From assembly GCA_044869275.1 (NCBI GenBank), contig JBIOXB010000096.1:1-56557 (forward strand): a stretch of DNA of 56,557 bases. The letters are read 5' to 3'. Shown in pieces: positions 7,758-33,319 of the stretch. The notes beneath the pieces are model-generated. The model had not been told where the DNA came from, did not search any database, and worked only from the letters and a program-made list of their open reading frames with translations. Made by a program: the position numbers and the translations under genes. Origin of the DNA: a bacterium. GTDB taxonomy: Bacteria > Zhuqueibacterota > Zhuqueibacteria > Zhuqueibacterales > Zhuqueibacteraceae. The number at the start of each line of letters is the position of its first letter. The stretch's first letter is position 1.

Positions 7758-7788
7758 AAAAAGATGACTCAAGAACTATCAGTGCCGA

Positions 7789-10134
7789 TCATTTTTCCAA
7801 ATGCACTTTTTTCAGCAATGCCGTGAACCGCGCATCGGAGTGCAGGCCATCGAGAAACGGATCCACTTTTACGAACAATGAGAATCCTGAATGTTCTTCA
7901 GAAGCTTTTTGCAGCCATCTGATGGCATGCTCGTTATCCCTAAGCCCGGAATAGAGTACGGCCATATGATAGGGATCGACGTAGGTGTGCCGTGCTTGTT
8001 CCTCCAATTCATCTCGCAGCTTCAAAGCCTCATTCACCTTGCCGGTTAAATTATAAGCGTAGGCCTGGAGCGCCAGCGTGACGGGTTTGCGGCCGAATAA
8101 ATTGATTTCCTTTTGAATCTCGGCAATCGCCTCTTCATACTCTCCTTTCTGCAGATAAGCCCGGGCGAGATAGGCATACGTTGGAAAATTTGGATCCATT
8201 GCAATGACTTGGCGATAGCGTTCTATCGCCAACTCGGACAGGGAATTCAGCAGAAAGATATATCCTTCCACCGAGTTGATGATGAGTGAGAGCGGGTCGA
8301 GCTCGCGCGCCCGTTCAATTGCGACCAGCGCTTCGTTAAACCGGTCCATCGCGGCGAGATACTCGGCATACCATTGATAAGCCGTCGCGTAGCTGGGATT
8401 GAGTTCAATCGCGCGCCGGAATTCTCTTTCGGCGGCCTGCCAATCCCATTCGTAAAGCATTTTCACATATGCCAATGAGCTGTGAGCCTCGGCGAGTTCG
8501 TTATTCATTTCAAGAGCTTTACTGGCCGCAGCACTTGCTTTCGGGAAAGCCTCTTGCGGAGAGAGAAAAGCGAATTGTCCCAACAGCAGGTACGAATCGG
8601 CAAGTCCCGCATAGGCCAACGCGTAGGCGGGGTCCTTGGCAACGGCTTGCTCGAAGTATTGCCGGCCTTGTTGCAACCCCTCCGACGTTCGTTTATTCCA
8701 GAAGAAACGGCCTTTCAAATATAGGTCATACGCTTCAAGATTTTCTGTTGGCGGTTTAACCAGCTTACCCTCGGGGTTGCCCGCCAGTGCGATCTGCAAA
8801 TTGTCGACAATGGCCCGGGCAATGCCATCTTGGATCGCAAAGATATTTTGCACGGTGCTTTCTTCAAAAGATTCGGACCAGAGATGGTAGCCATCGGCCA
8901 CGTTAATGAGTTGGGCCGTGATGCGCATTTTATCACCGGCCTTGCGCACGCTCCCTTCCAAAACCGCGCTCACGTTGAGCTGTTCGCCGATTTTGCGGAT
9001 GTCGTAAGCCTTCCCTTTAAATTGAAAAACGGAGGTTCGCGCCACCACGTTTAATCCCTTCACTTTCGCCAGCGCATTGATCAGTTCTTCGGTCATGCCA
9101 TCGCTGAAATACTCTTTCTCGGCGTCAGTGCTCATGTTCACAAAAGGCAGCACCGCGATGGAGGCCGGCCTTGCCTTTGGTTTGGTGCGTTGCAAAAGAT
9201 TGAGGCTTATCGCCGCAACAAGCAAAACCACAAAAAGCGCCACGCCTGCAAAAAGCCACCGCCGTTTTATCCGAAGCGTTGTAGCTTTTGGCGGAGGCGC
9301 TTTTATTTTACTGGTTTTGAAACCTCTCTGCAAATTCTTCAAACCAACCTGTATCTCATCCACATGCTGGTAACGAGCGTCAGGATTTTTTGACAGTGCT
9401 TTGCCGACAAGTTGCTCCAATTCAATCGGCACGCTGGGCCGTAAATCTGCAATTGGTTTGGGTTCATCATTCAAAATTGAATAAATGATCGCCTGCTCGT
9501 ACTCGCCGCGAAACGGCAATCTACCGGTCAGCATCTCATACAGCACTACGCCAAATGACCAGATGTCGGTGCGCTGATCGACCGGCTCACCCCACGTTTG
9601 CTCCGGCGACATGTACGCCACCGTGCCCAAAGTGGTGCCGGCCTTGGTAAGATGCATACCGCCACCGATTTTCGCCAAACCGAAATCCATAATCTTGACT
9701 TGGCCGGATTCCGTCACCATAATATTGCTGGATTTGATGTCGCGATGGGTGATGCCTTTGGCATGTGCGGCTTTCAGGCCTTCGGCAATTTGTGCAGCGT
9801 AGGCGAGACAATTCTCAATTGTCAATTGAGAATTGGCGATTAACAATTTTCTCAGTTCCTGTCCATCGATGAATTCCATCACCATGAACATTTCATCATC
9901 AATTTCCTCGATGGCGTAAATCGTGGCGATGTTGGGGTGATTCAACGCCGCGGCAGCCTGCGCTTCGATTTTGAAACGCTCGCGCTCTTCGGCGCTGGCG
10001 GCAATGTGCCGCGGCAGAAATTTGATCGCGACTTCGCGCTTGAGCTTGGTGTCTTCGGCTTTGTAGACTATTCCCATTCCCCCTTCACCCAACTTCTCTA
10101 GTATCCGATAATGTGAAATTGTTTTTCCAATCAT
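7789..10134 (-). CDS. Ser/Thr protein kinase K1: kinase + TM + TolB-N-like domain + TPR repeats
   Basis: [32 protein letters not shown]; hydrophobic TM; SIAVLPFVNMS..EYFSDGMTEELI; TPRs. Start MIGKTISHY at 10134. Confidence 0.93.
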   Translation of the reverse strand: MIGKTISHYRILEKLGEGGMGIVYKAEDTKLKREVAIKFLPRHIAASAEERERFKIEAQAAAALNHPNIATIYAIEEIDDEMFMVMEFIDGQELRKLLIANSQLTIENCLAYAAQIAEGLKAAHAKGITHRDIKSSNIMVTESGQVKIMDFGLAKIGGGMHLTKAGTTLGTVAYMSPEQTWGEPVDQRTDIWSFGVVLYEMLTGRLPFRGEYEQAIIYSILNDEPKPIADLRPSVPIELEQLVGKALSKNPDARYQHVDEIQVGLKNLQRGFKTSKIKAPPPKATTLRIKRRWLFAGVALFVVLLVAAISLNLLQRTKPKARPASIAVLPFVNMSTDAEKEYFSDGMTEELINALAKVKGLNVVARTSVFQFKGKAYDIRKIGEQLNVSAVLEGSVRKAGDKMRITAQLINVADGYHLWSESFEESTVQNIFAIQDGIARAIVDNLQIALAGNPEGKLVKPPTENLEAYDLYLKGRFFWNKRTSEGLQQGRQYFEQAVAKDPAYALAYAGLADSYLLLGQFAFLSPQEAFPKASAAASKALEMNNELAEAHSSLAYVKMLYEWDWQAAEREFRRAIELNPSYATAYQWYAEYLAAMDRFNEALVAIERARELDPLSLIINSVEGYIFLLNSLSELAIERYRQVIAMDPNFPTYAYLARAYLQKGEYEEAIAEIQKEINLFGRKPVTLALQAYAYNLTGKVNEALKLRDELEEQARHTYVDPYHMAVLYSGLRDNEHAIRWLQKASEEHSGFSLFVKVDPFLDGLHSDARFTALLKKVHLEK

Positions 10135-10177
10135 ACACGACGCCTGCCGCCCCGCGGGACCAATATGAACGAAATTC

Positions 10178-14022: not shown

Positions 14023-17000
14023 TTACGACCATTGCTCCAACTGCGTCTTCGCTTCTTGCAGATCTGCCGTATCAAAACCTTCGGTGAACCAATTGTAAAC
14101 GTCCGACAGCAATTGCCGCGCTTCGGTTTTTTTATTCTGTTGCTGCCAAAGACGGCCCAGGCTCATGGCCGCGCGCAGCTCCAGCGACTTGGCGTTCTGC
14201 CGCTGTGCAATCTTGAGCGCGTGCTGAAAACACGCTTCTGCCTCTGCTTCAGTTATTTCTTTTTGCTCTTTGCTTTTTTCTTTTTGCTTCACCAATTCGC
14301 CTTTGAGCCGATACAACTCCGCCTCATAAAAGCGCTCATCATTTTTTTCTACCAGCGCCAACGCCTCGGCCAGCACGGTGAGGCCTTCTTCAGTCTGATT
14401 ATTTTTCCAATGCACCTCGATCAACATTGATAGATGGCAGGCTCGCCACGACGCTGCTCCGGTGGCTTGATAGGCAGCCAAACCCTGGCGCATCTGTGCA
14501 ATCCCCTCCTTGGTCTGCCCTTGCTCGGCCAATGCCCAGCCATGCAGGATATTGCCAAATGTTAACCAGAACGCAAACCCCTGTTCAGCACAGAGTGCAA
14601 CCGTTTCCTTTGCCAACGCGTGGGTTGCTTGGCACTCTCGACGGTGCTGACGGACCATAGCAGCGAAGTTCAAACCACAAGCCAAACTATTGGCATGAGA
14701 CACCTCCCTCGCCAGCGTAATTCCCTCCTGGCTCTGCCCTAGCGCTTGCTCAGGATAGCCAAGCAACCACAGCGTCCAAGCCAAACCGACTCGCCCCAGC
14801 ATTCCAGCATCATGCCCATAAGAATAGGCCAGGGACCGGTGCTGCCGGCTGTCATAAAGAGCAACGATTTGCTTCCAATGCTCAAGGGCCAAATCAAGTT
14901 TTCTCAGACCAAATAAAGGCCAGGCTACAGTTCGATGCCCGACTAAAATTGCAGGGTCTTGTTGGCGCCGGGCCGTACTCAGGAGCTCTTCACCGAGCGC
15001 AAGCGCCTTCCGGTGTTCCCCGTTCACAATAGGAACCGCGCATAAGCCGTAAAGTACCGGGAGGAAATACGGCGTTTCCCCAAGCTGCCGGCACAGCTCT
15101 CGCGCGCGAGAATAAGTTTGTTCGACTTCCGAGGAAGCATAGCCCTTTGTGGCTATCAACACATTGCCCAAAGCGATTTGCAATGTCAGTTCTTGTTCAC
15201 TGCGCTCACGGGTATCCGGCAAGGTCTTGAGTATCTGCAATCCCTTGTTAAGATGCGCCATCGCTTCCACATTCGCCGAACGTTGAATGGCGCGCCGGCC
15301 GGCCTTTTGCCAGTATTCGATCGCTTCTTTTTTCAATCCTGCTTCCGTGTAGTGATGCGCCAACAGTTCCGGTTGCGTTTCGGCAATCTCCGAAAATTTC
15401 GTTGCTAAAATTTCGGCAAATCGCCGGTGATGCTGCTGGCGCGTGCTTTTGAGCAAAGATTCATACGCCGCGTCCTGAATCAAGGCATGTTTGAAAATAT
15501 AGTTCACTTTGGGCAACACGCCTCGGCGGTACAGCAGCTCGGCATTCACCAAACGCGCCAGTTCCTCGTTCAAGGTTTCCTCGTTCAAAGGCGAAACGGC
15601 GTGCAGCCATTCATAAGGAAATTCGCGGCCCAACACCGCCGCCACTTGCGCGACTTCTTTGGCAGTGTCCAAACGATCCAAACGCGCCATCAGCGAATCA
15701 AGCAAAGTGGCGGGAATGGAAAGTTGCATTAACGATCCTCGCAATTCATACTGACCGTCCTTCTCTTTGAGCAGGCCCGACTCTAGCACCGTCTTGGTCA
15801 TTTCTTCCACGAACAATGGGACACCATCGGTTTTGCGGGCGAGGTGATTGAGCACTTCATCCGGCAATGCCTTTCCTTTCGTTACCCTCCCGACCATGTT
15901 CTCAATCTCCATGCGCGACAAGCGGCTCAGCGTGAGGTAAGTCCGATACGAGCGCATCTCCCATGGCGGCGTAAAAGTTGGACGAAAGGTAAGCAGGATG
16001 CATAGTCTGGTCGTTGGCGCCTGATCGATCAACATCTTGAGCAGATCGAGGGTGGAAGGATCACTCCAATGCACGTCCTCCATCACAAAGAGCAGCGGCT
16101 GCTGGCCGGCGCGGGTCAACAGCAGGGCGAGCAATGCTTCGAGGGTCTTTTGTTTTTGCTGTTGCGGGGACAGATTGAGGGGAGGGTAATTCTCGTTGAG
16201 CGGAATCGACAACAGCGTGGCAAAGAGCGGCACGGTTTCCGGCAGGCCCAGTCCATACTGCACTAAAAAGCCTTCGAGCTTGCGCAATTTTTCCGGGCCG
16301 GCCTCTTCGGCCTCAAATTGCAGCACCACTCGTTCGAGCAATTCGATGAAGGGATAAAGGGCGCTGCTCTGATGGTAGGGCGAACAGAAGCATTCGGTCA
16401 ACCAAGCTTTGGGGTTGGCCGCCACGTATTCTTTCAGTTCCTGCACCAGCCGCGATTTGCCAATGCCGGCTTCGCCGCTAAGTAAAACCACCTGCCCATT
16501 TCCTTCGACCACCTGTTCCCAGCGTTCCTGCAACATGCCGATTTCTTTCGCGCGACCCACCAACGGCGTCAAGCCCGTGACTCGCGCAGCGTCGAGACGG
16601 CTGCGGGCCGCGCTGGCATAAAGCACTTGATACAGAAGCATCGGCTGCGCGAGACCTTTTATTACCTGCGTGTCCAAATCACGGCAATCAAAGTATCCCT
16701 CGACCAACCGGTAGGTGGCCTGGCTGATCACGAGTGCACCGAAATCAGCCAGGTTCTGCAACTGCGTCGCGAGATTCGGCGTCTCGCCGACAAGCGCCTG
16801 CCCCTGTTCACTTTTGTCTCCGGCAACCACCACACCGGTGTGAATGCCGGCGCGGGCAAACAGCTTGAACCCTTTTTCTCGTTCGAAGCGGAGATTCATT
16901 TGCCGCAACCCTTCGAGAATCCCGAGTCCGGCATGCACGGCGCGGCGGTCGTCATCTTCGTGGGCATGGGGATAGCCAAAATAGACTAAAAGAACATCGC

Positions 17001-18024
17001 CGAAAGACTGAATGATCTGCCCTTCGTAGCGGGCAATGACTTTGGCGCACAGCGCCTGATACGCCGGCAACAGCACGTGGAACTCTTCGGGATCGAGCGG
17101 TTCCGAATGTAATGGCGAAGCGACCAGATGGCACGACATCACCGTCACCTGGCGGCGCTCGGGTGTTGATACAGCAGATTTGGTCGACGGCTTCTCCGGA
17201 GTTTTCCCCGTCTTTTCTTTTTGCAAGCTCTTCAAGTCTGCCAATATCTCCATTGCAGCTTGATACCTGGTGCTGACCTCCTTTTGCAGAGCTTTTTCAA
17301 CGATCATTTGCAATGCTTCCGGAACATCAGATCGATATCGTGCCAGTGGCTCAGGATCTTCGTGAACAATCGAGTACATCATCGCGGCTTCGTACTCACC
17401 GCGAAACGGCAGTTGACCGGCGAGCATTTCATACAGCACCACACCGAACGACCAAATGTCGGTGCGATGATCGATCTCTTCGCCCCGCGCCTGTTCCGGC
17501 GACATATACGCCGCGGTGCCGAGTGTCGTGCCGGTTTTAGTGAGATGCACATCGCCAATCTTGGCCAACCCGAAATCCATGATCTTCACTTGCCCAGATT
17601 CCGTCACCATGATATTGCTAGATTTGATATCGCGGTGGATAATACCCTTCGTGTGCGCGGCTTTCAGCCCCTCGACGATTTGTGTGGCGTAGGCGAGGCA
17701 ATTATCAATTGACAATTGAGAATTGGCAATTACCAATTGTTTCAACTCCCGCCCCTCGATAAATTCCATCACCATGAACATGTCATCGTCGATTTCCTCG
17801 ATGGCATAAATCGTGGCGAGGTTGGCGTGGTTCAGCGCCGCCGCGGCCTGCGCTTCGATTTTGAAACGCTCGCGCTCTTCGGCGCTGGCGGCAATGTGTC
17901 GCGGCAGAAATTTGATCGCGACCTCGCGCTTGAGCTTGGTGTCTTCGGCTTTGTAGACGACGCCCATTCCCCCTTCACCCAACTTTTCTAGTATCCGATA
18001 ATGTGAGATTATTTTTCCAATCAT
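14023..18024 (-). CDS. Ser/Thr kinase K2: kinase + class III cyclase-like domain + STAND AAA ATPase + TPR (TOMM kinase/cyclase fusion-like)
   Basis: Intact kinase motifs; ERRQVTVM..., GIHTG, VGETPNLA; LVGR, Walker A GEAGIGKS, Walker B VMEDVHW, GVPLFVEE, FKHALIQDAAYESL; C-terminal ELRAAMSL...WFTEGFDTADL. Confidence 0.92.
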   Translation of the reverse strand: MIGKIISHYRILEKLGEGGMGVVYKAEDTKLKREVAIKFLPRHIAASAEERERFKIEAQAAAALNHANLATIYAIEEIDDDMFMVMEFIEGRELKQLVIANSQLSIDNCLAYATQIVEGLKAAHTKGIIHRDIKSSNIMVTESGQVKIMDFGLAKIGDVHLTKTGTTLGTAAYMSPEQARGEEIDHRTDIWSFGVVLYEMLAGQLPFRGEYEAAMMYSIVHEDPEPLARYRSDVPEALQMIVEKALQKEVSTRYQAAMEILADLKSLQKEKTGKTPEKPSTKSAVSTPERRQVTVMSCHLVASPLHSEPLDPEEFHVLLPAYQALCAKVIARYEGQIIQSFGDVLLVYFGYPHAHEDDDRRAVHAGLGILEGLRQMNLRFEREKGFKLFARAGIHTGVVVAGDKSEQGQALVGETPNLATQLQNLADFGALVISQATYRLVEGYFDCRDLDTQVIKGLAQPMLLYQVLYASAARSRLDAARVTGLTPLVGRAKEIGMLQERWEQVVEGNGQVVLLSGEAGIGKSRLVQELKEYVAANPKAWLTECFCSPYHQSSALYPFIELLERVVLQFEAEEAGPEKLRKLEGFLVQYGLGLPETVPLFATLLSIPLNENYPPLNLSPQQQKQKTLEALLALLLTRAGQQPLLFVMEDVHWSDPSTLDLLKMLIDQAPTTRLCILLTFRPTFTPPWEMRSYRTYLTLSRLSRMEIENMVGRVTKGKALPDEVLNHLARKTDGVPLFVEEMTKTVLESGLLKEKDGQYELRGSLMQLSIPATLLDSLMARLDRLDTAKEVAQVAAVLGREFPYEWLHAVSPLNEETLNEELARLVNAELLYRRGVLPKVNYIFKHALIQDAAYESLLKSTRQQHHRRFAEILATKFSEIAETQPELLAHHYTEAGLKKEAIEYWQKAGRRAIQRSANVEAMAHLNKGLQILKTLPDTRERSEQELTLQIALGNVLIATKGYASSEVEQTYSRARELCRQLGETPYFLPVLYGLCAVPIVNGEHRKALALGEELLSTARRQQDPAILVGHRTVAWPLFGLRKLDLALEHWKQIVALYDSRQHRSLAYSYGHDAGMLGRVGLAWTLWLLGYPEQALGQSQEGITLAREVSHANSLACGLNFAAMVRQHRRECQATHALAKETVALCAEQGFAFWLTFGNILHGWALAEQGQTKEGIAQMRQGLAAYQATGAASWRACHLSMLIEVHWKNNQTEEGLTVLAEALALVEKNDERFYEAELYRLKGELVKQKEKSKEQKEITEAEAEACFQHALKIAQRQNAKSLELRAAMSLGRLWQQQNKKTEARQLLSDVYNWFTEGFDTADLQEAKTQLEQWS

Positions 18025-18049
18025 ATACGACGCCTGCCGCTATGCGGGA

Positions 18050-18139
18050 TCAATTTATTGTACTCTTACTGAAGGAAGACATGCCGCCTTCGCCGAGCTT
18101 TTCGATGATTTTGTAGTGCGATATGGTCTGGTCGATCAT
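18050..18139 (-). pseudogene. kinase 5'-end copy / leader ORF upstream of K2 (29 aa)
   Basis: [20 protein letters not shown], then a 45-nt insert containing TGA, then ggcgtcgtat (GVVY codons) abutting the K2 ATG. Confidence 0.85.
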
Positions 18140-18212
18140 AGTCATTATTTCTTTTCACCCGTACTCAATCTTCGTACTTCTCTTTCTGGCAGTTCCTTAA
18201 AGTTCTGTATTG

Positions 18213-18256
18213 ATTGCAAATTTTAAATTGAAAATTATCAATTTAAAATTTGCAAT
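18213..18256. repeat. AT-rich perfect inverted repeat built of ATTnnnn heptamers
   Basis: attgcaaattttaaattga-aaatta-tcaatttaaaatttgcaat (19-bp arms), with ATT every 7 nt. Confidence 0.8.
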
Positions 18257-18282
18257 GTTTTTTGTTGTGACTCAAGGCCGCG

Positions 18283-19173
18283 CTAGATAGCAGCCGATAC
18301 GCTCCCGGCATAGTCCCTGACCGAAGCGAGCTTTAGGGGAAACGTCTTGAGCATTTCTTGCATGTCAATGGCATCACCCTGCGCATAGCACAACATCAGG
18401 CCGGAAAAGGACTGCTGCATGGGATCCGTTGCGGCCTTTTGTTGTGCCCGTAGGGCCTCCTCTGGGACATGTTGCACTGCGAAGGGCTTTCCACCCACTT
18501 TTTCAAAGATCCGTACGGCCTGCAGAGGACTGAGAGCTTCGGGGCCGCCCAACTCGAGTACAGCATTCTTCGCCGCCGGGTTATCCAGGCTTTCCACCGC
18601 AAATTGTGCGACGTCCTTAAAAGAGATCCAACTGATTGGGTTCTCGCCCGTCCCATAAATCTGGGCCTTGGCATTAGATACATCAAAGCCTACGGCTGGG
18701 GTGAGCCAGACCTCCATGAAATAGCTTGGGTGCAGGATGGTGTAAGCGAGTCCGCTACCTTTCAGGCGCTGCTCCACCGCGCGCTTGGCATTCCTAAGCG
18801 GAAAGTCAAGGTCCATGTGACCCGATAACGAAGTGTAGATAAAGCGGGATACGCCGGCAGCCTGTGCCGAGCTGATGAGATTCGTCAAGCCCTCAAGATC
18901 AACTGTCTGAATATTATTCTCCTCCGGCTGGTAGGAAAACGGCATCGAAGACGCGGTTGAGATCACCGCTGTGATTCCCTGACATGCAGCTTTTAGGGAG
19001 GCACGGTCGCGCAGATCACCCTGCACCAGTTCAACACCGAAACTTTTCAACTTGCCCACCTTGGTTCCATCCGACGTGGATCTGACCATTGCCCTGACCG
19101 GTTTACCTTTGGCGGTAAGTTGTCGGCATGTTTCCGTGCCCAAAAAGCCGGTTGCTCCAACGACTAAAATCAT
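18283..19173 (-). CDS. NmrA-like / atypical SDR NAD(P)-binding protein
   Basis: ILVVGATGFLG, GDLRD, K.AVEQ.L..SGL.YTIL.P, DVAQFAV, LELGGPE; AGGAGGT RBS, start 27 bp after the K3 stop. Confidence 0.88.
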   Translation of the reverse strand: MILVVGATGFLGTETCRQLTAKGKPVRAMVRSTSDGTKVGKLKSFGVELVQGDLRDRASLKAACQGITAVISTASSMPFSYQPEENNIQTVDLEGLTNLISSAQAAGVSRFIYTSLSGHMDLDFPLRNAKRAVEQRLKGSGLAYTILHPSYFMEVWLTPAVGFDVSNAKAQIYGTGENPISWISFKDVAQFAVESLDNPAAKNAVLELGGPEALSPLQAVRIFEKVGGKPFAVQHVPEEALRAQQKAATDPMQQSFSGLMLCYAQGDAIDMQEMLKTFPLKLASVRDYAGSVSAAI

Positions 19174-19200
19174 AATGTACCTCCTACCTGTTGTAAGTTA

Positions 19201-22200
19201 TCATAGGTAGCCCATCTTCTGGGCCAATTCTAAAGCTTGATTAAGGTTTGTACATGTTTCTTTTGCATCACCTCCTTGCCATGTATGAATTGCTTTTTCC
19301 AGAACCGCCGTTAGCGCCTCGGGCACTCGCATCATTTGCGAGGAGTCCAGCAGACCACGCGCGTAATCAATCGCTTCGGAGATTTGATCTTGAGTGATGG
19401 ACACACCGATTAACGGCCAGAGTGCTGTCCAGCGAAAGGCGGTGCTCGCATGCCCGGCTGGTAATTGTTGCCAAGTCTCAAGAGCAGCCTGCCCGTTCTT
19501 ATTCACCTCTGGTAAGTTCCCTTCACGCCATGCCGCCCAGGCCATATTCGCTTTGGCTGTGGCGAGGTATTCAATCATCTGGCCTGAGGACGCGATGGCC
19601 TCGCAGCGCGGAATATATTGCCGGACTTTTTCTAATTCACCGCGCTTTCTGTAAACGACAGTCAAATAGGTCAAGCAACGCGATTGCAGAACCACGTCAC
19701 CCGTTCGCTCCGCCAATTTCAAGGACTCTTGCAACTGTTCCTCCGCTTCATCCAAATCGTCGCGCCATAACAAACTAAAACCAAGCAAAAAATGCGACAT
19801 GCCGAGCGAGTTCAAATTTTTCGACTCGCGGCTTGCTGATAATGCGGCTCGAGAATGCGCTATGATCTCATCTGAAATCACATAGCGAGAGCGCCTATAA
19901 CCCATCAGCGTGAGGCCATTGAAAAACCTAGCGCGCTGAGCCGGATTGCCGTACTGTTCCACAGCAGGCCTGACCTTTGCTGCTAGCGCATTCATTTCAA
20001 CCAACTGCGCTTGCCAATAGTGCATCCAAATCCGCTCGGCCTGGGCCTCGATCCATTCGTGCCACCAATCCCCGGAATGTTGCTCCTGCTCTGGTCCAAG
20101 CACAGATTCGGCCAGTTTGTAAGTTTGCAAAGCTTCATCAAATCGTCGTTGCACCTCAAAGGTTTTGCCCGTCTTGCGGTAAAGACGCGATTGCCAGATC
20201 AAATCATGTTGCGGAACCTGGGTCAAAGCCTCTTGATATGAAGCTCGGGCTTCTTCATGCCGTCCGGTTGGCGCTTGTGCATCACCTAAACCTTCGAGAA
20301 TTTGTGCCGTCAATTCCTGGCGCTGTTCCGGTTTGGTTTTGGGCCAAGAAGCTTGCTTGATCAAAGCCAATGCCTGTTGGTAGTGTGCTATCGCTTCTGC
20401 ATTCGCATAAACTTGTCGCGCCTGTTTCGCGGTCTTGATCATATAATCAACGGCCTTTTCAGCAATCCCGGCGTCACGAAAATGCCGCGCCAGGTGGACG
20501 GCGATCTCATCGGCATGTTCGCCATACAAGTTCTCCAACACCGTTCCCACTTCCTCGTGGAGATAGGCCCGCTCAATTTCATCCAGACTGTTGTAAAGGT
20601 ATTTCTGGAATAAGACATGCCGGAACCGATACAACGACAAACGCCGGCCATTCATTCGTTGAATGCCCTGGGCGCTCACCAGGTTATGATGCTTCTCCAA
20701 ATCAGCGCTCAACAGCCGGATCATTTCCATCTCGTTTGTTCCATGCAGCCGGGCCACAACCTCGGCAACGAATTCTTCGCCTTCTACGCTGGCTGTGACC
20801 AACACTTTCCTCAAGTTCTCCGGCAATCGCTCAATGCGTTCGCCGACCACGGCATCGACCCGCGCCGGCAGGGTATTCCAGTTCAAAGCCGGGCCCTCGA
20901 TCCACATTCCCTCCTGATCCCGAACCAACACGCCCTGTTCCTGCATGCCATGAAGCAGTTCAACGGTGAAGAGGGCATGTCCCTCGGTTTGTTGAAAGAG
21001 CGTGTCACGAAATGAGGCGCTCACCCGATTCGGTTCCGTGTCAATAAAAGCGTTGATGAAATGGCGGCCTGCAGCCTGATCCAGTTCTATTTTAAAATCA
21101 CCGAAGAGTCCCTTGAATTCATTAATAACGGATGCCAGAGGATGTCGCTCACCGCTTCGTCCCAAAGCGACTTCAGTCGGCCTGTACGTGCCCACAATAA
21201 GAATGCGATCGCGCTCGATTCTCCGGCCCAAATGAAATAGCAGGCTGATCGAACCTGCATCGGCCCATTGCAGATCGTCCAAAACCATCAGCACAGGTTG
21301 CAGGCGTGACAATGTTTGCAGTACCGTGGTGAATTGTTTGAAAAGGTCGCTTTGCTGGAGATGGGAAGCGGGGGATGCGGAGGTCTTACCTTCCACCTGT
21401 TTTTTCAAACGGGTCAACCAGCTTGCTCGGCTGGAAGTAAAAGCAACGGCGCGTTTGAGTAGCGCCTCACCGGGCACAAATGTCCCAATCAGGTCGGAGC
21501 CGGCATCTACCAGCGCTGGCATTGAAAGCGGGAGAAAATTCCACAGGCGCGTGGCATGCTCTTTGGTGATGGCGCCTGCCGCCCACATCGCTTCAACCTC
21601 GCCCGTCAGCATACCGAGGAGGTCACGGAATGGGAGATAAGGATCGCCGATGCCGGTATGGGCATCGCTTTTTCCACCCGCCACGATCAGGTCAGCGTGC
21701 CTCTTTTGCGCGAACTGCTCGAAGGCCCGGATCAAGGTTGTCTTGCCACTTCCAGCTTCGCCGGTGATGAAAACCATCTGGCCCTTTCCGCTCAACGCCA
21801 AATCGAGAAATTTATCCAATCTCGCCAATTCATGTTCACGGCCTATGCAAAAAGGCTCGTGCTCCTCCACCATCGCTCTTTCGCCTGCGACAAAGGGCGC
21901 CGGGATATCAGGTTGTTCTGCGGAGATACCAGTTTCAAAATTTTTCGTTATCGCATGCAACGCGAGGCGCATCTCCTCCACGTGCTGATAGCGTTCAGCC
22001 CTGTCCTTTGCCAAAGCGGTACTCACCATGTGTTCCAATTCCGTTGGCGTCTCGGGACGCAGAGATAATAGCGATTCCGGTTCTTCATGCACGATCGCAT
22101 ACATGATCGCCGCTTCGTACTCGCCGCGAAACGGCAGTTGGCCGGCGAGCATTTCATACAGCACCACGCCAAACGACCAAATGTCGGAGCGATGATCAAT

Positions 22201-22749
22201 TTCTTCGCCCCGCGCCTGTTCCGGCGACATATACGCCGCAGTGCCGAGTGTCGTGCCGGTTTTGGTGAGATGCACGCCGCCGCCGATCTTCGCCAAACCG
22301 AAATCCATAATCTTGACCTGACCGGATTCCGTCACCATAATATTGCTGGACTTGATGTCGCGATGAGTGATCCCTTTCGTATGCGCGGCCTTCAACCCCT
22401 CGGCGATTTGCGTAGCAATGTTGATGACCCAGTCCACTGACAACTGACCACTGGCCACTTTCTTTTTCAGTTCTTCGCCCTCGATGAATTCCATCACAAT
22501 GAACAGATCATCATTGATTTCTTCGATGGCGTGAATCGTGGCGAGGTTGGGGTGGTTCAAAGCGGCCGCGGCTTGTGCTTCGATTTTGAACCGTTCGCGT
22601 TCTTCGGCACTGGCGGCAATATGCCGCGGCAGAAATTTGATTGCGACCTCGCGCTTGAGCCTGGTGTCCTCGGCTTTGTACACGATGCCCATGCCGCCTT
22701 CGCCGAGCTTGGCGAGAATCCCATAGTGGAGGATGGTTTGGCCGACCAT
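19201..22749 (-). CDS. Ser/Thr kinase K3: kinase + STAND (AAA_16, MalT-like) ATPase + TPR
   Basis: Intact kinase motifs; CIGREHEL, Walker A GEAGSGKT, Walker B VLDDLQWAD, TEGHALF, YRFRH, LARHF; long TPR C-terminus; no TM. Confidence 0.92.
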   Translation of the reverse strand: MVGQTILHYGILAKLGEGGMGIVYKAEDTRLKREVAIKFLPRHIAASAEERERFKIEAQAAAALNHPNLATIHAIEEINDDLFIVMEFIEGEELKKKVASGQLSVDWVINIATQIAEGLKAAHTKGITHRDIKSSNIMVTESGQVKIMDFGLAKIGGGVHLTKTGTTLGTAAYMSPEQARGEEIDHRSDIWSFGVVLYEMLAGQLPFRGEYEAAIMYAIVHEEPESLLSLRPETPTELEHMVSTALAKDRAERYQHVEEMRLALHAITKNFETGISAEQPDIPAPFVAGERAMVEEHEPFCIGREHELARLDKFLDLALSGKGQMVFITGEAGSGKTTLIRAFEQFAQKRHADLIVAGGKSDAHTGIGDPYLPFRDLLGMLTGEVEAMWAAGAITKEHATRLWNFLPLSMPALVDAGSDLIGTFVPGEALLKRAVAFTSSRASWLTRLKKQVEGKTSASPASHLQQSDLFKQFTTVLQTLSRLQPVLMVLDDLQWADAGSISLLFHLGRRIERDRILIVGTYRPTEVALGRSGERHPLASVINEFKGLFGDFKIELDQAAGRHFINAFIDTEPNRVSASFRDTLFQQTEGHALFTVELLHGMQEQGVLVRDQEGMWIEGPALNWNTLPARVDAVVGERIERLPENLRKVLVTASVEGEEFVAEVVARLHGTNEMEMIRLLSADLEKHHNLVSAQGIQRMNGRRLSLYRFRHVLFQKYLYNSLDEIERAYLHEEVGTVLENLYGEHADEIAVHLARHFRDAGIAEKAVDYMIKTAKQARQVYANAEAIAHYQQALALIKQASWPKTKPEQRQELTAQILEGLGDAQAPTGRHEEARASYQEALTQVPQHDLIWQSRLYRKTGKTFEVQRRFDEALQTYKLAESVLGPEQEQHSGDWWHEWIEAQAERIWMHYWQAQLVEMNALAAKVRPAVEQYGNPAQRARFFNGLTLMGYRRSRYVISDEIIAHSRAALSASRESKNLNSLGMSHFLLGFSLLWRDDLDEAEEQLQESLKLAERTGDVVLQSRCLTYLTVVYRKRGELEKVRQYIPRCEAIASSGQMIEYLATAKANMAWAAWREGNLPEVNKNGQAALETWQQLPAGHASTAFRWTALWPLIGVSITQDQISEAIDYARGLLDSSQMMRVPEALTAVLEKAIHTWQGGDAKETCTNLNQALELAQKMGYL

Positions 22750-23465: not shown

Positions 23466-23757
23466 AATCCCGTAGGGATGAAATGTCTATAGCTCAAGAT
23501 CAACCACAGAGCCAAAACTCCGTAGGAGTGAAATGGTGTTGCCTTTGAAATCCAAAAATCAATCCTTCTCTTCATCAACCCATTTGAAAAGATATTTCTC
23601 GTCGTATTCCACGGTGAATTTCTTGAGCATCTCCAGATATTCATCTTTGAACGTCTTCTTTTCTTCACCTGGTGTTGCTCAAATACATGTCACTCCTACG
23701 GAGTTTTCCTAGTTTTATTTGGCGTGGGGCTATAAACATGGCACTCCTAACGGAGTT
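23466..23757. mobile_element. REP-flanked fragment of the IS200/RAYT-like transposase 3' end
   Basis: aatcccGTAGggat and aactccGTAGgagt on the left, inverted copies actcCTACggagtt and actcctaacggagtt on the right; 23567-23661 matches 26464-26558 with 1 mismatch in 95 nt. Confidence 0.75.
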
Positions 23758-23888
23758 TGATGCTGCGACACAAGCTTTAATGCGACGGTGCGCTTGAACT
23801 TGGTGTTCTCGGCTTTGTACACGACGCCCATACCGCCTTCGCCGAGTTTTTCGAGGATACGATAGCGCGAAATTGTTTTGCCGATCAA
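23730..23888 (-). pseudogene. truncated Ser/Thr kinase (first ~39 codons)
   Basis: TTG start overlapping the K4 stop (TTGA): [38 protein letters not shown], then runs into a REP palindrome. Confidence 0.85.
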
Positions 23889-26203
23889 TTTTCTAACTCC
23901 AATTTTTTTAGCAGAGCTTGAAACCGCGGTTCTGAGTGCAAGGGATCGAAGACGGGGCTTAGTATGAGAACTACAAGCCAAGGTCCATTCCGCTCGAGCA
24001 TGGTCAGTGCCTTCTCCTTTTCATGCAAGCTTACATAAATCTGGGCGATGGCCACGTTTGTGTATTCGCCTCGCTCCAATCGCTCCTTCAATTCCTCAAG
24101 CAACTTCAACGCCCTCTCCCGCTGGCCTGATAAGGCATAAGCGCTGCCAAGATATCCCAAACAATCCAACCTTCCTAAAGCCAGCGCGTCCACCTTCTGA
24201 AGCGTTGCTATAGTTTCATCATAAAGACCCTTCGTGAAATAAGCCATTCCGAGATTACACTGCACTTGGGGAAAATTAGGGTTCAGTTGGAGCGCCTTGA
24301 GGCAGTGCGCAATGGCCTCATCATACTGGCGGTCATAGACGTAAGCCCATGCAACGAAGGCATTCACACTTTCCGAAAGTGGATTGAGATCAAAGGCGCG
24401 AATCATCTCAGCCAATCCCTCCTTCGTCCTGCCCCGTTTAAATAGCCCCCATCCATATTCGCGATGTGCTTCCGCGTTGCCAGGGTTCAGTTCAATTGCT
24501 CGTTTAAATTCCTCCTCCGCGCCGGACCAGTCCCCATCAAGATCCTTTCGGATCACGGCCATCGCGCTGTGGGCTTCGGACAGGGTCTCGTCCAGTTCCA
24601 ACGCCTTCATTGCCGCCTGCCTTGCTTTGACTTCGGCCTCTTCCAGAGGCAGTAAACGCATCATTACTGCCGATGCCAGGTATGGCACAGCCACAGCGGC
24701 GTATGCCTGGGCGAAGTTCGAGTCTATCGCGATCGCCTGCTCGTACTGGTTTAACGCCTGCTGCATACTCTCTTTGGTTTGCTTATCCCAGAAACTCAGT
24801 CCCCAGAGATAATGCTTATAGGCCTCAGGGTCCACAGCTCGGGCTTCTTGTAAGCGCGCCTGCTCCTGAGGCGTCAGCTTGATTTGGATTTCGTGGGTGA
24901 TAGCGAGTGCCACCTGGCGTTGCAGCGTCAATACTTCACGCAGATCGCGCTCATAACTATCTGCCCACAAATGCTGATCGGTTTTTGCTTCGATTAACTG
25001 CGCCGTAATCTGAACCCGGTCTCCGGAGCGCACCACCGAGCCTTCGACAATCGCATCCACGTTCAACTGGCGCGCGATCTCCGGCAGCGACTTCGTCGTG
25101 TTTTTGAATTGCATGACCGAGGTACGCGAAATGACCCGCAAGGCTTTGACTTTGGCCAGTTCGGTAATCACCGCTTCCGTCATACCATCGGCAAAGTACT
25201 CTTGCTGTGGGTCACCAGAAAGGTTCGCGAGAGGCAACACGGCAATCGCATCAAAGGTTTTGCTGCGCTTGGAAAAGAAATAGAGTCCACCGGCGATGAG
25301 TAAAATGAGAAAAGCAGCAATGCCGCCGTAGAGAAAAGTACGCCGTCTTTGCAAGAGATTTGGCTTGATTTTGTTTGCGGATGAAGAAGCACGAGCTTCG
25401 GTGGGAGATTTCAAATCCGGCAGCATGTCTTCAATCTGCCGGTAGCGTGTTTCCGGATTTTTGTCCAAAGCTTTGTCAATAATGTGCTGCAAACCTATTG
25501 AAACCTCGGCCCGGTGGCGGGACAAAGGCTCCGGCGCTTCGTTCACAATGGCGTACATGATCGCCTGCTCATATTCGCCATGGAAAGGCAATTGGCCGGT
25601 AATCATCTCATACAGCACGATGCCCAGCGACCAAATATCCGTACGATGATCTACCTGCTCGCCGCGTGCCTGCTCCGGCGACATATAAGCAGCCGTACCC
25701 AATGTCATACCAGATTTAGTCAGGTGCAGACCGCTGTTGATCTTCGCCAAACCGAAATCCATGATCTTCACTTGCCCCGATTCCGTCACCATGATGTTGC
25801 TAGATTTGATGTCGCGGTGGATGATGCCTTTGGCGTGCGCGGCTTTCAGGCCTTCGGCGATTTGGATGGCGATGTCAATCACACTGCTTACTGGTAACTG
25901 ATCACTGGCCACTTTCTTTTTCAGCTCCTCGCCTTCGATGAATTCCATCACAATGAATATCTCACCATCGACTTCCTCGATGGCATAAATCGTGGCGATG
26001 TTCGGATGGTTCAAAGCAGCCGCGGCCTGCGCTTCGATTTTGAACCGCTCGCGTTCTTCGGCACTGGCGGCGATATGCCGCGGCAGAAATTTCAGCGCGA
26101 CGATGCGTTTAAGCTTGGTGTCCTCGGCTTTGTACACGATGCCCATGCCGCCTTCGCCGAGCTTTTCTAGTATCCGATAATGTGAAATTGCTTTGCCAAT
26201 CAT
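23885..26203 (-). CDS. Ser/Thr kinase K4: kinase + TM + TolB-N-like + TPR
   Basis: Intact kinase motifs; [48 protein letters not shown]; TPRs. Confidence 0.93.
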
Positions 26204-26319
26204 ACACGACGCCTGCCGCTATGCGGGGCCAAGTTATTGTATTTTGCACTGAAGGAAGGCATACCGCCTTCGCCGAGCTTTTCTGAAATTTTGCAGTGAG
26301 AAATGGTTTGGCCGAGCAC
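26200..26319 (-). pseudogene. kinase 5'-end copy / leader ORF upstream of K4 (39 aa, ATGA-coupled)
   Basis: GTG start, [20 protein letters not shown] + 46-nt insert + ggcgtcgtgt; its TGA (26200-26202) overlaps the K4 ATG. Confidence 0.85.
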
Positions 26320-26361
26320 GATCTAGATCTCCGGTTTCTTCAATTTCGAGGCGAGTGCGTT

Positions 26362-26432
26362 AATCCCGTTAGGGATGAAATGTTTATAGCACGGAACCAA
26401 GCCAAGGGCAAAAACTCCGTAGGAGTGACATG
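26362..26432. repeat. GTAG-type REP palindrome pair
   Basis: aatcccgttagggatgaaatg...aaaactccgtaggagtgacatg, homologous to 23466-23535. Confidence 0.75.
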
Positions 26433-26455
26433 TTGTGGCGGCCGAAATCCAAAAA

Positions 26456-26884
26456 TTAATTCCTCTCTTCATCAACCCATTTGAAAAGATATTTCTCGTC
26501 GTATTCCACGGCGAATTTCTTGAGCATCTCCAGATATTCATCTTTGAACGTCTTCTTTGCATGGTGCTTTTCCTGATCCTGAACATATTTCGCCACCGCG
26601 TCGATTTGTGAGTGCCCGTATGAAAATGCGCCGAATCCTTCCTACCAATTGAATTTTCCCCGAATCCATTTCTTCTCGTTGATGAATGCTGATGAATTGT
26701 TTTTGATATCGCGGGTCAAATCGGACAGCGCTATGCCCGGTTTTATGTCTATGAAAATATGCGCATGAGCTAGAATGCTGTTGATACCGAGTAATTCTTG
26801 CTTTTCACTCCGAATGATTTCGGCGATATATTTGTACAGTTCTTCCTTCTGCTCTTTTGGGAAGAGACTTTGCCGCCCTTGCAT
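26456..26884 (-). pseudogene. tnpA: IS200/IS605 TnpA (Y1 HUH) or RAYT-like transposase pseudogene
   Basis: QGRQSL...ELYKYI...AHAHIF...SDL.RDIKNNSS.FINEKKW..GKFNW*EGFGAFSYGHSQ...YV..QE.HH.KKTFKDEY...YLFKWVDE. In-frame TAG at 26642-26644; N-terminus missing. Confidence 0.85.
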
Positions 26885-26992
26885 CGCGACCCCGCGCTTG
26901 AGCCTGGTGTCCTCGCTTTGTACACCACGCCTATACCGCCCCTTCGCCGAGTTTTTGAGAATGCGATAGTGCGAGAATGTTTTATCGATCAC
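26885..26992 (-). pseudogene. degenerate, frameshifted kinase 5'-end fragment fused to the tnpA remnant
   Basis: gtgatcgataaaacattctcgcactatcgcattctc..aaaactcggcgaagggcggtataggcgtggtgtacaaagcgaggacaccaggctcaagcgcggggtcgcg aligns to MIDKT.SHYRIL.KLGEGG.GVVYKAEDTRLKR.VA. Confidence 0.8.
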
Positions 26993-30405: not shown

Positions 30406-30542
30406 AGCAGGATGCTGAAAAAGTCTCGAATTGCTCGAATTCGTCATTCCCACGAACGAGGGAATCCATGATTTTGTTTGATTTTCTGGATACCCGCTTT
30501 CGCGGGTATGACATCGAAAAGAGTTTTTCAGCATCCTGTTAG
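30406..30542. mobile_element. MITE-like element: 15-bp terminal inverted repeats enclosing a REP-like pair
   Basis: CAGGATGCTGAAAAA (30408-22) ... TTTTTCAGCATCCTG (30524-38); inner gtcattcccacgaacgagggaatcca / tggatacccgctttcgcgggtatgac. Confidence 0.7.
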
Positions 30543-30593
30543 AAACACTGCACTCCTAGCGGAGTTAAGCAGGAAGTAGTTTCGCCGCTCATC

Positions 30594-33230: not shown

Positions 33231-33319
33231 ACTGAATTTCTCCTTTGCCTGCGGGACAAGTCGCCGCCTTCGCCGAGCTTGGAGAGGATGTGATAGTGCG
33301 AAATTGTTTTGCCGATCAT
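33227..33319 (-). pseudogene. kinase 5'-end copy / leader ORF upstream of K6 (30 aa, ATGA-coupled)
   Basis: MIGKTISHYHILSKLGEGGDLSRRQRRNSV*; TGA 33227-33229 overlaps the K6 ATG. Confidence 0.85.

Follow-up and report, generated by a model that had tools for sequence, protein, structure and literature searches.

A dispersed, hairpin-ended DNA unit of about 46 nt at the glycine-rich loop codons of decayed kinase genes in a bacterial kinase array

An insert between loop codons in two kinase leaders

The window (the whole stretch of DNA that was analysed, 56,557 nt) is contig C96 of a 6.7-Mb genome. It carries six Ser/Thr kinase genes (K1 to K6) on the minus strand from 7789 to 33230, which differ from each other in their C-terminal parts and are separated by kinase 5′ stubs and unrelated genes. 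Ahead of K2 and K4, the kinase codons of a stub are interrupted by 45 or 46 nt lying exactly between those for GEGGM and GVVY, raising the question of what this insert is, how it reached that junction, and what part it has in the array. An earlier, sequence-only reading saw it as a small palindromic element that targets the ATP-binding loop codons and may be the recombination or integration site of the array. The relevant features are listed below.

7789-10134, minus: K1, intact kinase and TPR gene, 781 aa
10135-10144, minus: spacer ahead of the K1 start
10145-10164, minus: 3′ unit remnant ahead of K1; stub and 5′ part lost
14023-18024, minus: K2, intact Ser/Thr kinase with cyclase-like and AAA ATPase parts, 1333 aa (Pfam PF00069, PF00211, PF13191)
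18025-18034, minus: resumed target (GVV codons plus T), now the spacer ahead of the K2 start
18035-18079, minus: unit copy, 45 nt, T/A type (first base T, A at the hairpin foot), in frame, with a TGA
18037-18047, minus: terminal mini-hairpin of the K2 copy, CCGC-ATA-GCGG (family form RTCCCGC-N3-GCGGGA with one G>C change)
18080-18139, minus: dead kinase 5′ stub, 20 codons, MIDQ...GEGGM, left flank of the unit
23691-23888, minus: kinase stub without unit, cut by RAYT-type palindromes like those at 26363-26992
23885-26203, minus: K4, intact kinase and TPR gene, 772 aa
26204-26213, minus: resumed target, spacer ahead of the K4 start
26214-26259, minus: unit copy, 46 nt, C/G type, E 1.3e-9
26260-26319, minus: dead kinase 5′ stub ahead of K4
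26363-26992, minus: kinase stub fused to a broken Y1 (RAYT-like) transposase (PF01797 at 26573-26881, one TAG)
33231-33319, minus: K6 leader, GEGG stub (33263-33319) and a different short module (33231-33262) with an AGGAG site

The coordinates, lengths and junctions of both inserts were confirmed. Read on the minus strand, the K2 leader passes from the stub, which ends in GGCGGCATG and is identical at 55 of 60 positions to a kinase start on contig C144, through the 45 nt to GGCGTCGTAT and then to the K2 ATG at 18024, the A of which is the middle base of the Tyr codon, as the sequence-only reading had it. Translation in frame with GVVY gives SSFSKSTIN*SRIAA, the asterisk being the TGA that had been pointed out. 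The K4 insert is 84% identical to the K2 copy, and the stub frame ahead of K4 stops at a TGA that overlaps the K4 ATG. The mini-hairpin recurs at 26216-26226 in the K4 leader and, with a GGG loop, in the 3′ 20 nt of the unit kept at K1, in agreement with the first description. A further remnant had been proposed at K6. The motif is indeed present (33246-33262), but its descent from the unit is only plausible: it lies in a second conserved leader module, a variant that also follows GEGG-type stubs on contig C195 and in genome G023 (L144). This module precedes EELGRGGM-type kinases, and its stub frame ends in an overlap of the form ATGA.

A pattern combining site and insert matched twice in the window and never in 100 shuffles. 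Across the whole genome, the insert is found at K2 and K4, plus the remnant at K1, and nowhere else; the broad search that had been suggested did reveal many free copies in other genomes. Positions 17931-22231 are covered by a contig of run X1, possibly the source, and positions 26123-26811 by one of run X2, which comes from a different sample in that study. Both agree with 0 differences, so the K2 and K4 leaders are not an assembly artefact. Among the 15 joints listed, of 95, none skipped the insert (contigs, which drop rare variants).

Several other features of the window were observed. At 7780-7792 and 23885-23888, a kinase stop overlaps the ATGA of a further kinase start (few bases of which are left after K1), an arrangement seen also at L040 and L057. 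The K2 stub is separated from an NmrA-like gene by a near-perfect AT-rich palindrome of 44 nt (18213-18256, 19 pairs). Behind K6 (30440-30565) there are palindromic repeats of a further type, and a plus-strand two-gene frame that resembles an antitoxin-PIN pair precedes K5.

A dispersed family of units with fixed ends

A model built from 17 sequences of nothing but the insert found matches in 16 of 151 genomes at a best E<1e-5, and in 49 of 151 at E≤0.05, some of these by chance; one of the 49 (G162) was excluded from models and later counts. Four genomes of one distant family each carried at least 40 matches, and a deeper search raised the number in one of them, G030, to 89. Thirty-six G030 copies and 29 other listed copies lie outside kinase starts, and the inspected copies of G030 and five other genomes are intergenic and mostly nested in other repeats. 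Insertion is thus not confined to the one codon pair, most inspected copies being outside kinase genes.

An HMM built from 60 non-kinase copies ranked the K2 and K4 copies (21.0 and 18.1 bits) as the top two of seven matches of at least 10 bits here, the next scoring 11.1, and had no match in the reversed genome. Since non-kinase copies alone pick out K2 and K4, the kinship of the window copies with the dispersed family is independent of the kinase flanks. The K2 copy was also matched by model R1 with an E of 1.6e-8.

The commonest host of the unit is a perfect GC hairpin, which occurs both empty and filled, at the same loop base. The numbers of empty and filled sites are 34 and 34 in G030, 4 and 12 in G028, 23 and 10 in G029, and 29 and 8 in G031, and their comparison shows no duplication of target bases. 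The insert is a member of a dispersed family of units that have fixed ends and sit between target bases without duplicating them. The existence of a small hairpin-bearing element, as first proposed, is borne out by independent occurrences across this family.

The consensus unit (about 45-46 nt) consists of YCTTC, a variable A-rich stretch, TAYAAT, TTG, R-T, and a 5-bp GC stem with a 3-nt loop. TAYAAT is found in 69 of 122 copies and a perfect stem in 77 of 122, with seven arm variants. Immediately 5′ of the junction, 107 of 123 copies have a G, which forms part of TG in 76 of 123; the 123 include one mis-called duplicate (L057), removed for the 122-copy counts and the unit tree. The two ends of the unit are unrelated, and there are no terminal inverted repeats. 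A left hairpin involving the GAAGGC codons appeared in only two of six folds. A promoter formed by TTG together with the unit was considered and rejected, its spacer to TAYAAT (14-15 nt by inspection) being too short for sigma-70.

Rfam covariance models gave no match at E≤1 at five loci. Integron attC sites have RYYYAAC...GTTRRRY core sites and a long imperfect palindrome; neither core is present in the unit consensus. No description of the family was found in Rfam or in a literature search that covered few subscription papers. Two insert-bearing database proteins are labelled candidate division KSB1, one of them the translated stub of G159, a genome of the same family as the present one, and from these labels we infer that the phylum of the unit-bearing genomes is KSB1.

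In the class of the present genome (125 genomes), the exact unit pattern had six matches, five in kinase starts and one apparently by chance, and the unit models found no free copy in this genome. From these searches, free copies are apparently rare in this class. The 27 strand matches of ATCCCGC-N3-GCGGGA in this genome belong to other repeats and are missed by the unit models. In G000, a longer dispersed repeat, distinct from the unit, surrounds ATCCCGC-N3-GCGGGAT at 14 or so loci (C11, C12, C52, C67 and others). G028 to G031 (L113-L141, L210-L221) contain a mosaic, BIME-like repeat of 150-300 nt with paired GC hairpins, in which units are nested in both orientations.

The first base of the unit covaries with the foot of its hairpin

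Base 1 of the unit and the purine after TTG, at the foot of the hairpin, follow a simple rule: they are T and A in 54 copies, C and G in 60, and another combination in 9 (114 of 123 conform). This is the strongest of 820 column pairs, and is seen in kinase copies (21/24), non-kinase copies (93/99) and all four subtypes. Copies nested in a host repeat may have multiplied along with it, in which case the number of events behind the 123 copies is much smaller, and recombination between two old subfamilies could give the same appearance as covariation.

Tandem copies allow the rule to be examined within single units. They are arranged head-to-tail, with an ungapped identity between units of 0.37-0.76, and in the six tandems in which the first bases differ, base 1 matches the foot of its own unit in all six and that of its neighbour in none. 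Because covariation stays within each unit even in unlike tandems, these would represent successive insertions of monomers, with pairing inside one unit.

Only in a unit whose ends are joined do the covarying bases lengthen the hairpin, which then spans the junction. In the 18 copies that end in the stem plus A, their predicted pairing has a median of 0.01 in linear form versus 0.97 in circular form. These 18 are part of the 77 perfect-stem copies, 39 of which end in G in place of this junction-closing A, and 20 of which are without that base. The hairpins of the window copies are too small to stand out against shuffles (z of 0.2 and -0.9).

The covariation points to a single-stranded, end-joined intermediate. 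We infer a 46-nt circle as its simplest reading, to which pairing between a guide and a cut site would be equivalent, and our best guess for the route is a single-stranded one of HUH type. No circle was observed.

Kinase-site copies are carried by dead genes

Pattern searches of 167 genomes of the phylum showed that homologous sequence begins exactly after GGM in G023, G062, G063, G127, G155 and G159. Of 40 loci from a metagenome scan, five proved to be kinase stubs carrying a unit and 35 were unrelated. Twenty-three kinase-site copies fall into two forms. In ten, the kinase sequence resumes at GVVY, and all ten frames stop within 6-109 codons. In the other 13, a new ATG comes after about 10 bases that resemble the target, and it opens a long frame in 9 cases.

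The proteins tell the same story. Kinases with a 15-aa insertion in the loop had been predicted, and the insert pattern does occur in 35 of 250 proteins retrieved by word-indexed searches and by exhaustive HMMER searches over 1.84 billion representatives. All 35 are 37-164 aa long and none has a DFG motif; about seven further insert proteins recognised by eye are equally short. No full-length kinase bearing the insert was present among the 250, and every kinase-site copy found lies in a dead 5′ stub. Since the insert contributes some 20-45 bits, a full-length carrier would top the ranking. These lengths make it extremely improbable that a functional kinase subfamily carries the 15 codons as an insertion in its loop, comparable to the protein-coding palindromes of the RPE type. 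The frame is open in most 45-nt copies, as this would need, but the invariant bases include third codon positions, and the same constraint is seen in non-coding copies. Translational bypass of the insert was also dropped, as the resumed GGC has no ATG before it and a whole kinase frame follows in none of the carriers.

Of the targeting proposed in the sequence-only reading, it is borne out that the same junction is filled in other genomes and in at least four kinase subfamilies; a targeting of ATP-loop codons as such is not supported, most inspected copies being in non-coding repeats. A single clade of carriers is rejected by the AU test (p 4.7e-6; 14 versus 31 rows, 52 columns). The tree of the units themselves does not reject one origin for the kinase-site copies (AU p 0.64; 45 columns, 24 kinase copies versus 45 of 93 others). 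A mobile unit may therefore have struck the kinase site just once or twice long ago, its copies being spread by recombination or gene conversion, with no site preference. Two founders would also explain why 8 of the 10 GVVY-continuing copies start with T and 11 of the 13 new-start copies with C, and free copies are rare where kinase copies occur. This account is possible, though on balance we doubt it, because the unlike units found in tandem at the kinase site (P0010, P0133, P0134 and P0147; L016, L093 and L223) require later insertions. In addition, the copies of G023, all ten of which sit in kinase leaders, are of the CTTCAA subtype, common to free copies, whereas the other kinase copies are of the CTTCC subtype. 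Finally, one variant occurs with either GEGGM or GGGGM on its left and with different right flanks (P0002, P0004), which requires a crossover within about 7 nt. Unlike tandems and the presence of two subtypes argue for more than one insertion at the kinase site, and the GEGGM^GVVY junction is a recurrent yet not exclusive target.

Inserts of 9-39 nt at this site ahead of an intact GVVYKA were absent from all 167 genomes. Over all species genomes, an insert followed by an intact GVVYKA was found at two loci, both of this phylum, with a pattern that requires GAAGG and so misses other codon choices. Viral contigs had no match for the unit and phages none; plasmids gave two partial matches, which at E 0.7 were attributed to chance.

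Other small in-frame hairpin inserts occur at fixed positions of kinase starts (after EDTKL, ISHY and MI, and inside GEGG), sometimes stacked three or four times. Examples are found on contig C203 of G000 (about 22060, minus strand), at L027 and L052, and in P0011, P0127 and P0246. Small inserts accumulate in kinase starts generally, at several fixed positions. In connection with the RAYT-like remnants described below, stubs ending in VAFQLR recur at L068 and in three proteins, which suggests another fixed insertion point.

The window copies as passengers of a leader module

K1, K2 and K4 share a derived GGCA end of the unit, the spacer and the downstream start. Their first 60 nt are alike at 51-57 of 60 positions, and have a GC3 of 0.35-0.45 versus 0.61-0.66 in the rest of the gene. 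The first 60 nt of K1 match a kinase start in G159 at 60 of 60 positions, where they are joined to another subfamily, and match the kinases of its own genome outside K2 and K4 at no more than 43 of 60. The same module of unit, 10 nt and new start heads other kinase subfamilies in other genera. From the identity of K1 with G159 and its continuation into another subfamily, the module appears to spread between kinase genes by recombination at their 5′ ends, and the three window copies are, as far as these comparisons go, passengers rather than fresh insertions. The possibility that all inserts descend from one ancestral event, named at the outset as what would count against an independent element, does not apply across the family, but locally it is partly true, given the shared GGCA end and start and the lack of a free copy.

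In the family form, the GGGA of the unit and the GG of the target create GGAGG, 8 nt ahead of the new ATG. The unit could then be a domesticated expression leader rather than debris, offering a TAYAAT box, a 5′ hairpin, GGAGG and a stub peptide coupled to the kinase start. The 13 new-start copies would suit such a role, most of them preceding an open frame, and in eight of the 13 a stub frame that stays open would run into an ATGA overlap. We consider this unlikely, as no promoter is called across the insert and no -35 box lies at the right distance from the TAYAAT box. In the window copies GGAGG has changed to GCAGG, K1 has lost the TAYAAT box, and this box is kept equally in copies nested in repeats.

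Even less probable is that the unit is a site-specific recombination or integration site by which the array was built, as the sequence-only reading had suggested. It would account for the unit and new start heading kinases of several subfamilies and genera, and for stubs that flank small cargo genes. However, seven of this genome's nine kinase stubs are without the unit, as are 13 of its 16 intact kinases (the stub count excludes the C76 row, which is not a kinase), the points of exchange lie downstream in conserved coding sequence, and the unit borders no cassettes in unit-rich genomes. The suggestion is left unsupported, neither a linked recombinase nor a partner enzyme having been found.

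Search for a mobilising enzyme

Candidate enzymes were sought among Y1, Y2 and GIY-YIG loci, and no mobilising enzyme or linked recombinase was found in these searches. None of the 30 Y1 loci fetched (37 matches in five genomes) is flanked by the unit, and these loci carry palindromes of their own. The only Y1 gene with a unit copy, on one side, is the broken one of the window, which lies about 250 nt upstream of the K4 stub and has short palindromes of its own (26414-26426 and 26363-26376). Genome G160 has a similar open frame ahead of a stub with two units, and the arrangement of Y1 remnant and unit seems to have been passed on together with the locus. Two RAYT-like remnants (23467-23756 and 26363-26992, minus strand) have palindromes of the GTAG type, and in both a kinase stub leads into the remnant; the G160 frame is similar to these.

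A search of four unit-rich genomes, 78-96% complete, gave no match to the Y2 transposase (PF04986); it has two matches in G000, neither with a unit copy nearby. Among 27 GIY-YIG loci, there are four with a copy less than 1.5 kb away, in each case to one side, and none is flanked; the G030 gene has a copy behind it, whereas its G031 counterpart does not. No gene enclosed by two units was seen in ten clustered regions of the G028/G030/G031 type among 17 fetched. A frame about 390 nt from a unit copy at L158 (G034), seen once, resembles the start of an integron integrase.

Comparison with known small repeats

The unit works like a non-autonomous element of the REP or IS200 type; by the features compared it falls outside REP/REPIN, MITE, IS91 and RPE, and it shares part of the features of IS200/IS605. 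Non-autonomous derivatives of IS200/IS605 exist. REP, REPIN and BIME sequences, moved by RAYT (TnpA-REP), are likewise small, multi-copy and mostly intergenic, with a GC hairpin, nesting in palindromes and tandems (PMC8266576, PMC3733652, PMC3116915). In REPs, the cut site is selected through base pairing with nucleotides that lie 5′ of the palindrome (PMC8266576), a relation of the kind seen between base 1 and the foot of the unit. Unlike REPs, the unit has no GTAG/CGTC tag, TTG-R-T preceding its hairpin in the 60 non-kinase copies; the CGTC that follows kinase copies is target sequence. It also has a single hairpin at the very 3′ end together with a conserved 30-nt tail, and no RAYT gene is flanked by it. 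It moves as a monomer and not as an inverted doublet like REPINs, single units filling single empty sites.

With IS200/IS605, the unit shares the lack of target duplication, a preference 5′ of the junction and the sign of an end-joined single-stranded intermediate (PMC8266576, PMC6006769). In IS200/IS605, as in REPs, a guide at the hairpin foot pairs with the cut site (PMC8266576), and the covariation of the unit is compatible with a guide of that type. It differs in having one hairpin in 46 nt rather than one at each end, apparently in the preference for only G or TG in place of a fixed target of 4-5 nt, and in that no transposase was found for it. IS91 also makes no target duplication, has a circular single-stranded intermediate, a CTTG target and a hairpin adjoining an end (PMC13181058). 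Of the 34 clean G030 junctions, 23 follow CTTG, but this belongs to one host repeat, other unit targets being CATG, TTTG and CGGG, and the unit-rich genomes searched have no Y2 transposase. MITEs differ from the unit in their terminal inverted repeats and target-site duplication.

The cyanobacterial SDRs are another comparison. They are reportedly very small gene-less repeats, the mobility of which was deduced from empty and filled sites while their mover stayed unknown (Elhai et al. 2008). Most are about half the length of the unit, and we know of no end-to-hairpin covariation in them. They belong to another phylum and have another sequence; small dispersed repeats are mentioned also in PMC2884548. 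The RPE, a palindromic repeat lying in frame within coding sequence, is about 150 bp long, in host genes thought to be functional (PMC10969869, PMC3733652), whereas kinase-borne unit copies occur only in dead fragments.

Proposed mechanism and significance

The overall explanation that we favour, and consider probable, is a mobile KSB1 unit of about 46 nt that would move through a single-stranded, end-joined form, has become part of a kinase-stub module, and is present in the window as a passenger. Both ends of the single-stranded unit would be cut by an enzyme that acts in trans and is most likely of HUH type. The ends would then join, as the 46-nt circle or through the equivalent pairing of guide and cut site, with the hairpin closing over the junction, and the joined junction would open into a new R^N site. 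Insertion at ATG^GGC would split the glycine-rich loop and kill that kinase copy, as the absence of full-length carriers suggests, leaving it to decay to a stub. In some lineages a fresh start may arise 10 nt behind the unit, where GGAGG would favour rescue, and the module of stub, unit and new start could spread between paralogues by recombination in their near-identical first 100 nt or so.

A bolder version is tentative, and rather unlikely in our view: the unit would be a minimal transposon of about 46 nt with a single-stranded circle, mobilised by an enzyme beyond the tested Y1, Y2 and GIY-YIG pairings, which repeatedly re-targets the kinase loop junction and there gives rise to a portable start with its ribosome-binding site, fuelling the shuffling of kinase arrays.

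For annotation, a class of short 'serine/threonine protein kinase' calls with a 15-aa loop insert can be explained as debris. How tiny gene-less repeats of the REP-like and SDR-like kinds move is an old question, in which ends and intermediates are mostly ill defined. With its exact ends, plentiful empty and filled sites and a predicted joined junction, the unit makes both the intermediate and the enzyme directly testable.
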